A DNA stretch of 64,000 nt. Source: Escherichia coli. Lineage in GTDB: Bacteria; Pseudomonadota; Gammaproteobacteria; Enterobacterales; Enterobacteriaceae. The notes beneath the pieces were generated by a model. The model had not been told where the DNA came from, ran no database searches, and saw nothing but the letters and a program-made list of their open reading frames with translations. The DNA lies in assembly GCF_003334335.1 (NCBI RefSeq), contig NZ_QOWQ01000022.1; one strand, 5' to 3'. The position numbers and the translations under genes were made by a program. Below, in pieces: positions 34,111 through 55,020 of the stretch (its first letter is position 1; every line of letters begins with the position of its first letter).

Positions 34111-34210
34111 TGCCGGATGCGGCACGAGCGCCTTATCCGGCCTACAAAATCGTGCAAATTCAAAATATTGCAGGGGACGCGTAGGCCTGATAAGCGTAGC
34201 GCATCAGGCA
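34111..34210. repeat. REP/BIME-type extragenic palindromic element (two inverted REP units) between gloC and aspC
   Basis: GCCGGATGCGGCACGAGCGCCTTATCCGGCCTAC and inverted GCGTAGGCCTGATAAGCGTAGCGCATCAGGCA. Confidence 0.8.
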
Positions 34211-38903: not shown

Positions 38904-40106
38904 TTAACTGGCTTTTTTAATATGCGGAAGGTCGAACGCTTTGCGCAGCGCCCGAACAAACGCTTTATCATGGCAGATAGTTTTGCCAGGGCTGTCAGAA
39001 AGTTTCGCCACCGGTTTACCGTTACACTCTACCAACTTAATGACAATATTCAGGGGTTTTACCTGGGGGATATCGCAGGTCAGGCGAGTCCCAATACCAA
39101 AACTTAATTGCACGCGGGAAGAGAAGTGGCGGTATAGCTCAACCGCTTTGCGTAAATCCAGATTGTCAGAGAAAACCAGCGTTTTACTCTGTGGATCAAT
39201 TCCCAGCTTTTCATAATGTGCAATGGCTTTTTCACCCCATTCAACCGGGTCGCCAGAGTCATGACGCAGGCCCTGATACCGACTAGCGAACTCGACACCG
39301 AAATCACGCAGGAAAGCATCCATAGTGATGCAGTCGGTTAATGCAATGCCAAGTTGGTCGGGATACTCTTCCAGCCAGGCAGCAAGTGCAGCTCGCTGGC
39401 TGTTGGCTAGATCCGGGCTGATTTGCTGATGTGCCTGGAACCATTCGTGTGCCTGTGTTCCCATCGGCGTGAGGGAAAGCCGACGCGCCAGATCGTAGTT
39501 GCTGGTGCCCACAAACCAGGATTCCTGTTGCAGACGCTTAACGATGGTTTCTTGTACTTCGCGAGAAAAACGGCGACGGGTGCCAAAATCCATCAGATGG
39601 AAGCGCGACATATCAAGACCGGCGGTTAACGCCGAGAAGTCGACTAATTTGCTTTCCAGCGTGTCGAGGGCTTGCGCAACGTCGGCCTGCGGTGAGCGAT
39701 AGCGATGTACCATTTCACTGATAACCGCCAGCAAAGGAACTTCCCAGAGGATGACTTCACGCCACGGGCCGCTTAAACGAATATCCAGCTTGCCATTATC
39801 GTTGGACACGGTGACTTGTTCCGGGTTAAAGCGGAACTCGCGTAACCAGTTAAGATAGTCGGCCTTAAAGAAAGGCAGGGCAGAAAGCCACTGATATTCA
39901 TCATCCTGCAGGCGCAGGTGCTGCATCGCCTGAACCTGTTCACGAATAGCATCGGCATAAATACCCAGCAGATCGTCACCTCGGCAACGAAACTCCGCCG
40001 CGACATGCACATCGTAATAGTGATGAAACACGGCTTGCTGCATATGCAACTTATAAGCATCTGTATCCAGCAACGAGTGCAGAACAGGAGAAGCGAATTG
40101 TGTCAT
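38904..40106 (-). CDS. pncB: nicotinate phosphoribosyltransferase, 400 aa
   Basis: ORF 38904..40154(-) trimmed to [20 protein letters not shown]. Confidence 0.93.
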
Positions 40107-40371
40107 AGGTGCGCAGTAGCGTCCTCGTACAGGAGCGTTTAGTACAATAAACATCTTCAGGAACTGCTGGAGTATACCTTGTTTCGCAATTTATTGAACC
40201 CCGATCACACCATATGCCACCTTTCTGGTCGATGGCATTACGCGGTGTATGTTATAAAAATGTAGCAATAAAGGCGTTTGTACCTGAAAAGATGAAGATT
40301 CTGCATAGCGCGATTTACGCAACAGGAATAGACTGAACACCAGACTCTATAAAAGATGCTAAAGGTTATTT

Positions 40372-42984
40372 ATGACTCAACAGCCACAAGCCAAATACCG
40401 TCACGATTATCGTGCGCCGGATTACCAGATTACTGATATTGACTTGACCTTTGACCTCGACGCGCAAAAGACGGTCGTTACCGCGGTCAGCCAGGCTGTC
40501 CGTCATGGTGCATCAGATGCTCCCCTTCGTCTCAACGGCGAAGACCTCAAACTGGTTTCTGTTCATATTAATGATGAGCCGTGGACCGCCTGGAAAGAAG
40601 AAGAGGGCGCACTGGTTATCAGTAATTTGCCGGAGCGTTTTACGCTTAAGATCATTAATGAAATAAGCCCGGCGGCGAATACCGCGCTGGAAGGGCTTTA
40701 TCAGTCAGGCGATGCGCTTTGCACCCAGTGTGAAGCCGAAGGTTTCCGCCATATTACGTATTATCTCGACCGCCCGGACGTGCTGGCGCGTTTTACCACC
40801 AAAATTATTGCCGATAAAATCAAATATCCCTTCCTGCTTTCCAATGGTAACCGCGTTGCGCAAGGCGAACTGGAAAACGGACGCCATTGGGTACAGTGGC
40901 AGGACCCGTTCCCGAAACCGTGCTACCTGTTTGCGCTGGTGGCAGGCGACTTTGATGTACTGCGCGATACCTTTACCACGCGTTCTGGTCGCGAAGTAGC
41001 ACTGGAGCTGTACGTCGATCGCGGCAACCTTGATCGCGCGCCGTGGGCGATGACCTCGCTGAAAAACTCCATGAAATGGGATGAAGAACGCTTTGGCCTG
41101 GAGTATGACCTCGACATCTATATGATCGTCGCGGTGGATTTCTTCAATATGGGCGCAATGGAGAATAAGGGGCTGAATATCTTTAACTCCAAATATGTGC
41201 TGGCCCGCACCGACACCGCCACCGACAAAGATTACCTCGATATTGAACGCGTTATCGGCCATGAATATTTCCATAACTGGACCGGTAACCGAGTGACCTG
41301 TCGCGACTGGTTCCAGCTCAGCCTGAAAGAAGGTTTAACCGTCTTCCGCGATCAGGAGTTCAGCTCTGACCTTGGTTCCCGCGCAGTTAACCGCATCAAT
41401 AATGTACGCACCATGCGCGGATTGCAGTTTGCAGAAGACGCCAGCCCGATGGCGCACCCGATCCGCCCGGATATGGTCATTGAGATGAACAACTTCTACA
41501 CCCTGACCGTTTACGAGAAGGGCGCGGAAGTGATTCGCATGATCCACACCCTGCTTGGCGAAGAAAACTTCCAGAAAGGGATGCAGCTTTATTTCGAGCG
41601 TCATGATGGTAGTGCAGCGACCTGTGACGACTTTGTGCAGGCGATGGAAGATGCGTCGAATGTCGATCTCTCCCATTTCCGCCGTTGGTACAGCCAGTCC
41701 GGTACACCGATTGTGACCGTCAAAGACGACTACAATCCGGAAACCGAGCAGTACACCCTGACCATCAGCCAGCGCACGCCAGCCACGCCGGATCAGGCAG
41801 AAAAACAGCCGCTGCATATTCCGTTTGCCATCGAACTGTATGATAACGAAGGCAAAGTGATCCCGTTGCAGAAAGGCGGTCATCCGGTGAATTCCGTGCT
41901 GAACGTCACTCAGGCGGAACAGACCTTTGTCTTTGATAATGTCTACTTCCAGCCGGTGCCTGCGCTGCTGTGCGAATTCTCTGCGCCAGTGAAACTGGAA
42001 TATAAGTGGAGCGATCAGCAACTGACCTTCCTGATGCGTCATGCGCGTAATGATTTCTCCCGCTGGGATGCGGCGCAAAGTTTGCTGGCAACCTACATCA
42101 AGCTGAACGTCGCGCGTCATCAGCAAGGTCAGCCGCTGTCTCTGCCGGTGCATGTGGCTGATGCTTTCCGCGCGGTACTGCTTGATGAGAAGATTGATCC
42201 AGCGCTGGCGGCAGAAATCCTGACGCTGCCTTCTGTCAATGAAATGGCTGAATTGTTCGATATCATCGACCCGATTGCTATTGCCGAAGTACGCGAAGCA
42301 CTCACTCGTACTCTGGCGACTGAACTGGCGGATGAGCTACTGGCTATTTACAACGCGAATTACCAGAGCGAGTACCGTGTTGAGCATGAAGATATTGCAA
42401 AACGCACTCTGCGTAATGCCTGCCTGCGTTTCCTCGCTTTTGGTGAAACGCATCTGGCTGATGTGCTGGTGAGCAAGCAGTTCCACGAAGCAAACAATAT
42501 GACTGATGCGCTGGCGGCGCTTTCTGCGGCGGTTGCCGCACAGCTGCCTTGCCGTGACGCGCTGATGCAGGAGTACGACGACAAGTGGCATCAGAACGGT
42601 CTGGTGATGGATAAATGGTTTATCCTGCAAGCCACCAGCCCGGCGGCGAATGTGCTGGAGACGGTGCGCGGCCTGTTGCAGCATCGCTCATTTACCATGA
42701 GCAACCCGAACCGTATTCGTTCGTTGATTGGCGCGTTTGCGGGCAGCAATCCGGCAGCGTTCCATGCCGAAGATGGCAGCGGTTACCTGTTCCTGGTGGA
42801 AATGCTTACCGACCTCAACAGCCGTAACCCGCAGGTGGCTTCACGTCTGATTGAACCGCTGATTCGCCTGAAACGTTACGATGCCAAACGTCAGGAGAAA
42901 ATGCGCGCGGCGCTGGAACAGTTGAAAGGGCTGGAAAATCTCTCTGGCGATCTGTACGAGAAGATAACTAAAGCACTGGCTTGA
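40372..42984 (+). CDS. pepN: aminopeptidase N (M1 family), 870 aa
   Basis: ORF 40372..42984(+); HEYFHNWTGN zinc motif. Confidence 0.98.
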   Translation: MTQQPQAKYRHDYRAPDYQITDIDLTFDLDAQKTVVTAVSQAVRHGASDAPLRLNGEDLKLVSVHINDEPWTAWKEEEGALVISNLPERFTLKIINEISPAANTALEGLYQSGDALCTQCEAEGFRHITYYLDRPDVLARFTTKIIADKIKYPFLLSNGNRVAQGELENGRHWVQWQDPFPKPCYLFALVAGDFDVLRDTFTTRSGREVALELYVDRGNLDRAPWAMTSLKNSMKWDEERFGLEYDLDIYMIVAVDFFNMGAMENKGLNIFNSKYVLARTDTATDKDYLDIERVIGHEYFHNWTGNRVTCRDWFQLSLKEGLTVFRDQEFSSDLGSRAVNRINNVRTMRGLQFAEDASPMAHPIRPDMVIEMNNFYTLTVYEKGAEVIRMIHTLLGEENFQKGMQLYFERHDGSAATCDDFVQAMEDASNVDLSHFRRWYSQSGTPIVTVKDDYNPETEQYTLTISQRTPATPDQAEKQPLHIPFAIELYDNEGKVIPLQKGGHPVNSVLNVTQAEQTFVFDNVYFQPVPALLCEFSAPVKLEYKWSDQQLTFLMRHARNDFSRWDAAQSLLATYIKLNVARHQQGQPLSLPVHVADAFRAVLLDEKIDPALAAEILTLPSVNEMAELFDIIDPIAIAEVREALTRTLATELADELLAIYNANYQSEYRVEHEDIAKRTLRNACLRFLAFGETHLADVLVSKQFHEANNMTDALAALSAAVAAQLPCRDALMQEYDDKWHQNGLVMDKWFILQATSPAANVLETVRGLLQHRSFTMSNPNRIRSLIGAFAGSNPAAFHAEDGSGYLFLVEMLTDLNSRNPQVASRLIEPLIRLKRYDAKRQEKMRAALEQLKGLENLSGDLYEKITKALA

Positions 42985-53899: not shown

Positions 53900-54009
53900 A
53901 ACAGGTTCGGAAAACGTTTGCGTTTTTTTTGCCGCAGGTCAATTCCCTTTTGGTCCGAACTCGCACATAATACGCCCCCGGTTTGCACACCGGGAATCCA
54001 GGAGAGTTC

Positions 54010-55020
54010 ATGTACTACCCCTTCGTTCGTAAAGCCCTTTTCCAGCTCGATCCAGAGCGCGCTCATGAGTTTACTTTTCAGCAATTACGCCGTATTACAG
54101 GAACGCCGTTTGAAGCACTGGTGCGGCAGAAAGTGCCTGCGAAACCTGTTAACTGCATGGGCCTGACGTTTAAAAATCCGCTTGGTCTGGCAGCCGGTCT
54201 TGATAAAGACGGGGAGTGCATTGACGCGTTAGGCGCGATGGGATTTGGATCGATCGAGATCGGTACCGTCACGCCACGTCCACAGCCAGGTAATGACAAG
54301 CCGCGTCTCTTTCGTCTGGTAGATGCCGAAGGTTTGATCAACCGTATGGGCTTTAATAATCTTGGCGTTGATAACCTCGTAGAGAACGTAAAAAAGGCCC
54401 ATTATGACGGCGTCCTGGGTATTAACATCGGCAAAAATAAAGATACGCCAGTGGAGCAGGGCAAAGATGACTATCTGATTTGTATGGAAAAAATCTATGC
54501 CTATGCGGGATATATCGCCATCAATATTTCATCGCCGAATACCCCAGGATTACGCACGCTGCAATATGGTGAAGCGCTGGATGATCTCTTAACCGCGATT
54601 AAAAATAAGCAAAATGATTTGCAAGCGATGCACCATAAATATGTGCCGATCGCAGTGAAGATCGCGCCGGATCTTTCTGAAGAAGAATTGATCCAGGTTG
54701 CCGATAGTTTAGTTCGCCATAATATTGATGGCGTTATTGCAACCAATACCACACTCGATCGTTCTCTTGTTCAGGGAATGAAAAATTGCGATCAAACCGG
54801 TGGCTTAAGTGGTCGTCCGCTTCAGTTAAAAAGCACCGAAATTATTCGCCGCTTGTCACTGGAATTAAACGGTCGCTTACCGATCATCGGTGTTGGCGGC
54901 ATCGACTCGGTTATCGCTGCGCGTGAAAAGATTGCTGCGGGTGCCTCACTGGTGCAAATTTATTCTGGTTTTATTTTTAAAGGTCCGCCGCTGATTAAAG
55001 AAATCGTTACCCATATCTAA
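54010..55020 (+). CDS. pyrD: dihydroorotate dehydrogenase (quinone), 336 aa
   Basis: ORF 53983..55020(+) trimmed to [23 protein letters not shown] at 54001-54005. Confidence 0.95.

Follow-up and report, generated by a model that had tools for sequence, protein, structure and literature searches.

Does the imperfect inverted repeat upstream of pncB serve as an operator for NadR, the regulator through which NAD is expected to repress this gene? The question was raised by a 64,000-nucleotide stretch of E. coli DNA (the window), in which the initial annotation had singled out a TGTTTA/TAAACG repeat as a candidate NadR site. The proposal is supported by the match to the published consensus, by the equivalent sites at nadA and nadB, by the position of the mapped transcription start site (TSS) and by the listing of pncB among the NadR targets. 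We therefore regard the element as very likely to be the NadR operator ("NAD box") that serves pncB in E. coli, one that is already documented. As such, it is almost certainly a known member of a well-characterised operator family under textbook regulation, and the sequence, comparative and public TSS data support NAD feedback on nicotinate salvage via NadR. The additions made here are the exact distance of the operator from the mapped TSS, its restriction to certain lineages, its derivation from an older 5'UTR element and a plus-strand TSS nested in it. These additions help annotation and leave the understanding of NAD regulation unchanged. The case also indicates that real operators can be recovered from raw sequence by reading alone.

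The inverted repeat in the pncB–pepN intergenic region

The window is E. coli chromosome; a 701-bp query around the site matched 5426 of 5426 complete E. coli genomes, with pncB and pepN as the annotations under the query. The pncB gene together with 144 bp of upstream DNA (1347 bases) is identical to K-12 MG1655. Translation from the ATG at 40106 gives a product that starts MTQFASP, in agreement with the annotated K-12 gene; the mechanical open reading frame goes back to an in-frame ATG at 40154 and exceeds the 400-residue PncB by 16 codons. The pepN gene starts at 40372 and is divergent from pncB, with an intergenic region of 265 bp between them.

The repeat, aTGTTTAttgtacTAAACg, runs from 40154 to 40136 on the minus strand, which is the sense strand of pncB. 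The initial annotation had read the sequence correctly and had placed it at 40137-40155, one base too high; its estimate of 31-50 nt upstream of the start codon is near the measured position of the 18-bp core, -47 to -30 from the pncB ATG (Table 1).

Table 1. Coordinates of the features at the pncB promoter (positions in the window)
Feature	Position	Strand	Description
pncB CDS	38904..40106	-	nicotinate phosphoribosyltransferase, 400 aa; NCBIfam TIGR01514, 621 bits; regulated gene
Probable NadR operator (NAD box)	40136..40153	-	TGTTTA-ttgtac-TAAACg on pncB sense strand; plus strand CGTTTAGTACAATAAACA
Promoter-proximal half-site TGTTTA	40148..40153	-	perfect; invariant in 54 operator-bearing species
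Promoter-distal half-site TAAACg	40136..40141	-	one mismatch, G for A at outer base
pncB TSS	40164..40165	-	G at 40164 or A at 40165; 5'UTR 58-59 nt
pncB -10 TATACT	40171..40176	-	at -12..-7 of mapped TSS; conserved in essentially all 80 species
pncB -35-like TTCAAT	40193..40198	-	16-bp spacer; read from sequence, conserved across genera
Plus-strand promoter core	40143..40156	+	-10 TACAAT 40143-40148 inside operator; TSS 40156, toward pepN

The repeat matches the NadR operator consensus

The NadR operator consensus is an 18-bp sequence, TGTTTA-N6-TAAACA (PMC2330245, PMC2330246). The pncB core is an imperfect palindrome that agrees with it at 11 of the 12 half-site positions and has a spacer of exactly 6 bp. 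The initial annotation had expected a spacing of N8 and had lowered its confidence on that ground, an expectation at odds with the published consensus. Because N6 is the canonical spacing, the spacing favours the operator call. Furthermore, TGTTTA-N8-TAAACA was absent from the three K-12 promoters searched (pncB, nadA and nadB), and N8 was rejected.

The frequency of the motif was assessed at three scales. The pncB site is the sole match to TGTTTA-N6-TAAACA with at most one mismatch in the 64-kb window, where 0.15 matches were expected and 14 of 100 shuffles contained at least one; a single such match per window is unremarkable by itself. Scaled from the window rate, about 11 chance matches of this quality would fall in a 4.6-Mb genome, and the motif alone is of low information. 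Within the 265-bp pncB–pepN intergenic region, the probability of such a site arising by chance was about 0.002, as obtained from 200,000 first-order Markov simulations using the region's own dinucleotide make-up. A full-text literature search for the exact operator strings returned no match.

Equivalent sites at nadA and nadB

The initial annotation had proposed a comparison with the nadA and nadB upstream regions, and the N6 palindrome was found in both. In K-12, nadA carries TGTTTAGCATATAAAACA at -90 to -73 from its ATG, with one mismatch, and nadB carries the perfect TGTTTAGTAAATTAAACA at -24 to -7, together with a second, two-mismatch copy 74 bp upstream; the nadA and the perfect nadB site both have N6 spacing. 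Fifteen of the 18 positions of the nadB operator recur in the pncB site when the latter is read on the plus strand. A search for an autoregulatory NadR box near E. coli nadR gave at best a sequence with three mismatches, located inside ettA. [quoted passage not shown]

The pncB site shares with the nadA-pnuC and nadB operators of E. coli and Salmonella the same 18-bp dyad, the N6 spacing and the presumed regulator, as well as an A+T-rich spacer starting GTA on one strand, a position at the transcription start or shortly after it (-8 to +10 at nadA) and the presumed control by NAD, ATP and c-di-GMP (PMC12421817). Unlike those operators, it lies further downstream (+12 to +29) and has a terminal-G mismatch, its distal half-site is built on an older conserved 5'UTR block, and the response of pncB to the loss of NadR is apparently weaker. 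Its distribution also differs, as the pncB operator occurs in about two thirds of the sampled Enterobacteriaceae, whereas nadA-pnuC forms the conserved core of the regulon (PMC5343134). A further relative is the NadR operator predicted at niaP of Proteus mirabilis, TGTTTAGTATACTAAACA, which has the same consensus and spacing and a spacer beginning GTA (PMC2330245); it differs in being a perfect palindrome, in belonging to a niacin transporter gene of a more distant enterobacterium and in being a computational prediction only. The operators of NiaR/YrxA, NrtR and NadQ likewise control de novo and salvage NAD genes, pncB included, in other lineages, but these are unrelated proteins that respond to other effectors (niacin, ADP-ribose), recognise other DNA motifs and are not the NAD regulator in Enterobacterales, the order to which HTH-bearing NadR is restricted.

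The probable operator lies just downstream of the pncB transcription start

The position of the repeat relative to the promoter was determined from published TSS maps. The supplement of Kim 2012 gives the pncB TSS at 989637 (U00096.2) with 180 reads, a UTR of 58 and printed flanking sequence, and the supplement of Romero 2014 gives a reverse-strand pncB TSS at 989638 with the flag YES, which probably denotes a site already recorded in RegulonDB. The offset of +777 from U00096.2 to NC_000913.3 was confirmed by gene coordinates printed in Kim's table, and the mapping of the window to K-12 was separately checked on the identical pncB region. The operator occupies +12/13 to +29/30 of the mapped TSS and follows the -10 by 17 bp. 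A TSS mapping far from the repeat had been named in the initial annotation as evidence against an operator; the pncB TSS lies 11-12 nt upstream of it. A consensus promoter and terminator scan of 40050-40420 made no call, because the -35 is weak and the combination of TTCAAT (3/6) with TATACT (5/6) fell under the scan threshold. Judging from the sequence, TTCAAT is the putative pncB -35.

At nadA, the Cappable-seq data place the TSS at 781226 (RRS 136), within an operator that extends from -8 to +10 relative to this start. Together with the position of the pncB operator, this places NadR boxes on or just after start sites. The nadA TSS datasets are in conflict: Cappable-seq, performed in minimal medium, reports a strong start at 781226, whereas the nadA entry of Kim 2012 holds only 781272, a weak start with 5 reads located 46 nt further downstream. 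The conflict may arise because NadR kept the main promoter repressed under the growth conditions of Kim 2012.

A half-site in the promoter itself was also observed. At 40180-40185 (minus strand), the spacer between the pncB -35 and -10 contains a NadR half-site in 54 of 54 operator-bearing species, with the exact TAAACA in 50 of them and GAAACA in Escherichia, and operator-less species have TAATCA or TAATAA at this position. Its centre is 44 bp from that of the main operator; it could be an auxiliary half-site or simply reflect shared ancestry.

Conservation of the probable operator across Enterobacteriaceae

Conservation was examined with a protein-guided scan of one genome per species, which yielded 80 Enterobacteriaceae pncB loci with PncB identities of 82-98%. 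In 54 of the 80 species, among them members of Escherichia, Salmonella, Citrobacter, Enterobacter, Kluyvera, Lelliottia, Kosakonia, Phytobacter and Pluralibacter, the operator is present at -46/-47 from the pncB ATG. These 54 operators comprise only 5 distinct 18-mers, every difference being at spacer position 7 or 9, and all 12 half-site bases, the mismatched terminal G included, are invariant. The stretch separating the -10 from the operator, by comparison, occurs as 22 distinct sequences, 7 or 15-20 nt long. The half-sites are conserved beyond the flanking non-coding DNA, and their invariance in 54 species while the neighbouring positions drift argues for continuing selection. Among complete E. 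coli genomes, 5407 of 5426 agree at every base of a 62-bp segment that surrounds the site.

The remaining 26 species, which include Klebsiella, Raoultella, Trabulsiella, Atlantibacter, Franconibacter, Siccibacter, Mangrovibacter, Superficieibacter and Pseudescherichia vulneris, lack an operator at this position but retain both the promoter and the 3' portion of the leader; the homologous sequence in them reads ...TGATGGAAACGCTCCTGTGAGAGGA... The absence of the operator from 26 of 80 species indicates that NadR regulation of pncB is lineage-specific. This distribution fits the published view that nadA-pnuC is the conserved core of the regulon and pncB a lineage-specific addition (PMC5343134). 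The AAACG of the distal half-site is part of the 5'UTR block GGAAACGCTCC..., which is conserved even without the operator and is therefore older than it; the terminal G is probably fixed because AAACG sits in this block.

Several lineages show rearrangements of the region. In nine loci from Klebsiella, Raoultella and Trabulsiella, the region from about -160 to -65 relative to the pncB ATG contains an insertion of about 61 bp that separates the ancestral -35 region from the -10. In these genera a new GGGACA -35 lies within the insert, there is no operator at the E. coli position, and the ancestral -35 region reads TGTTCAATATATTAAACT, with 2 mismatches to the NadR consensus. This two-mismatch "site" at about -155 is the displaced homologue of the ancestral -35 and not clearly a relocated operator, and it was rejected as such. 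Four Enterobacter species have a 10-bp deletion, equal to one helical turn, that brings the operator to 7 nt after the -10, where it would overlap the TSS as it does at nadA. In Enterobacter sp. Ag1, a perfect NadR palindrome, TGTTTAGTACTCTAAACA, is located at -197 from the pncB ATG; the upstream neighbour of pncB is not pepN at this locus, and the palindrome may belong to a different adjacent gene.

NadR and the proposed repression of pncB

NadR is listed as a repressor of nadB, nadA, pnuC and pncB (PMC12421817, PMC5343134), and the RegulonDB-derived NadR regulon consists of nadA, pnuC, pncB and nadB (PMC3224099). NAD is the co-repressor, and ATP releases NadR, as does c-di-GMP in Salmonella (PMC12421817, PMC2330246). 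In addition, Data 7 of the PPTP-seq study enters nadR-pncB as a "known regulatory interaction". The EMSAs with NadR published in 2025 covered the promoters of nadB and nadA-pnuC only.

Two expression datasets bear on the size of the effect. In the PPTP-seq CRISPRi reporter screen, the pncB promoter did not respond to nadR knock-down, with log2 fold changes of 0.14, 0.10 and -0.13 in three media, all called 0; these figures come with neither a displayed nadR knock-down efficiency nor a nadA or nadB positive control in the data consulted, and NadR may not repress in minimal media. An evolved K-12 derivative that carries a nadR mutation showed about 3-fold higher expression of nadA, pnuC and nadB; pncB is not mentioned with these genes. 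Both datasets suggest that pncB repression is modest in K-12, in keeping with an operator that is imperfect and lies beyond the start site.

The operator lies in the promoter region of a NAD salvage gene, where a bound repressor could hinder RNA polymerase. The open complex protects DNA to about +20. NadR with NAD would bind the operator right after the TATACT -10, occupy DNA in the downstream portion of the RNA polymerase footprint and, by this presumed clash, block stable polymerase binding or promoter escape. Plentiful NAD would thereby lower nicotinate salvage through pncB repression. With the single mismatch and the downstream position, pncB would be repressed less strongly than nadA and nadB.

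A plus-strand promoter nested in the probable operator

A second start site was found on the opposite strand. Cappable-seq data for the plus strand, which cover TSSs up to about 1 Mb in the part compared, contain a TSS at U00096.2 989629(+), corresponding to position 40156, with an RRS of 39.4; the main pepN starts have 59.9 and 70.1. The same position is listed in Kim 2012 with 5 reads, a 216-nt pepN leader and a printed flank that ends ...AATAAACATCT. The TACAAT within the operator is located at -13 to -8 of this TSS, and no -35 could be recognised for it in the sequence. The plus-strand and pncB promoters thus face each other, and their transcripts overlap by about 10 nt.

This arrangement raises the possibility, which we hold only tentatively and consider rather doubtful, that one operator is shared by two face-to-face promoters, with NadR and NAD shutting both and the polymerases competing for overlapping DNA when NadR is absent. 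If true, the distal pepN transcript would be NAD-responsive, and the competition without NadR could explain why the loss of NadR yields little net pncB induction. No link between NadR and pepN in E. coli was found in the papers searched.

A separate pepN start was observed exactly at its ATG (40372, corresponding to 989845), with an RRS of 21.2 in Cappable-seq and 7 reads in Kim 2012. This start suggests a leaderless form of the pepN mRNA, besides the starts at 40265 and 40341.

Alternative explanations for the conserved repeat

A genuine NadR site may have a negligible influence on pncB in E. coli K-12 today, that is, it may be a weak or vestigial operator. The absence of a response in the three PPTP-seq media, the absence of pncB from the targets reported up in the nadR-mutant derivative, the one mismatch and the location at +12 to +29, rather than over the -10 or -35, all point in this direction. 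However, the 12 half-site bases are invariant in 54 species whose neighbouring sequence drifts, the PPTP-seq values carry the reservations on knock-down, controls and medium given above, and the literature repeatedly describes pncB as NadR-repressed (PMC12421817, PMC5343134, PMC3224099), so that we consider a vestigial operator unlikely. It is very unlikely that the block is kept mainly as the -10 region of the plus-strand promoter, with the resemblance to a NadR box being secondary. The TSS at 989629 does occur in two independent datasets, TACAAT (40143-40148) is suitably placed at -13 to -8 of it, and the spacer TTGTAC is conserved more than an "N6" would require. But a -10 hexamer explains neither the dyad symmetry nor why the outer bases of the half-sites (40136-40141 and 40149-40153) never vary, and the promoter has no recognisable -35. 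The spacers at nadB, Proteus niaP and Enterobacter sp. Ag1 also begin GTA, and NadR itself may prefer such a spacer. Promoter and operator functions are, moreover, not mutually exclusive. Since the plus-strand promoter does not account for the invariant outer bases, the assignment to NadR is not displaced by it.

The repeat is also transcribed, as the TSS lies upstream of it, and its minimum-free-energy fold has a 6-bp stem; it could in principle be an RNA hairpin at +12 to +29 of the pncB 5'UTR that acts on mRNA stability or translation. The fold of this 5'UTR is nonetheless ordinary (z = 0.18, with 110 of 200 shuffles folding as well or better), the stem consists of six mostly A-U pairs, and the location of the nadA TSS inside the motif makes a full hairpin impossible in nadA RNA. 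An Rfam search of 39900-40500 at a permissive E-value returned only a sub-threshold PepN-thermometer (21 bits against a gathering threshold of 83) on the pepN side, and nothing for the repeat. Because the stem bases never vary, covariation neither supports nor excludes a hairpin. With a fold no better than shuffles and no Rfam match, we rejected this idea as highly improbable. A functionless A+T-rich palindrome of chance origin is scarcely credible. Only 12 bases are specified, and matches in 14 of 100 whole-window shuffles show that such sequences do arise, but the low chance probability for this intergenic region (P about 0.002), the invariance in 54 species amid variable flanks and the identical motif and spacing at nadA and nadB stand against it, and the conservation pattern effectively refutes it. 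The NadR operator thus remains the preferred reading of the repeat.

Additional elements of the region

Further sequence elements were noted around the operator. A TGTGA at 40205-40209 (minus strand), just upstream of and overlapping the pncB -35, is kept in nearly all 80 species and may be the CRP half-site; PPTP-seq Data 7 counts crp-pncB (repression) among the known interactions. In the pncB leader, the 3' part at 40107-40140 (minus strand), AAACGCTCCTGTnnGAGGAnGCTACTGCGCACC, is kept in 80 of 80 species, operator-less ones included. The sole Shine-Dalgarno-like sequence of the leader, GAGGA, is 15 nt from the AUG, and a small predicted hairpin, CGCUACUGCG, between GAGGA and AUG could shorten this distance. 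Elsewhere in the window, Rfam matches at the gathering threshold were a PyrD leader at 53942-54015 (plus strand, 97.9 bits) and the ES036/CssrF sRNA at 34146-34188 (plus strand, 53 bits), both of which are known elements expected for this E. coli region.
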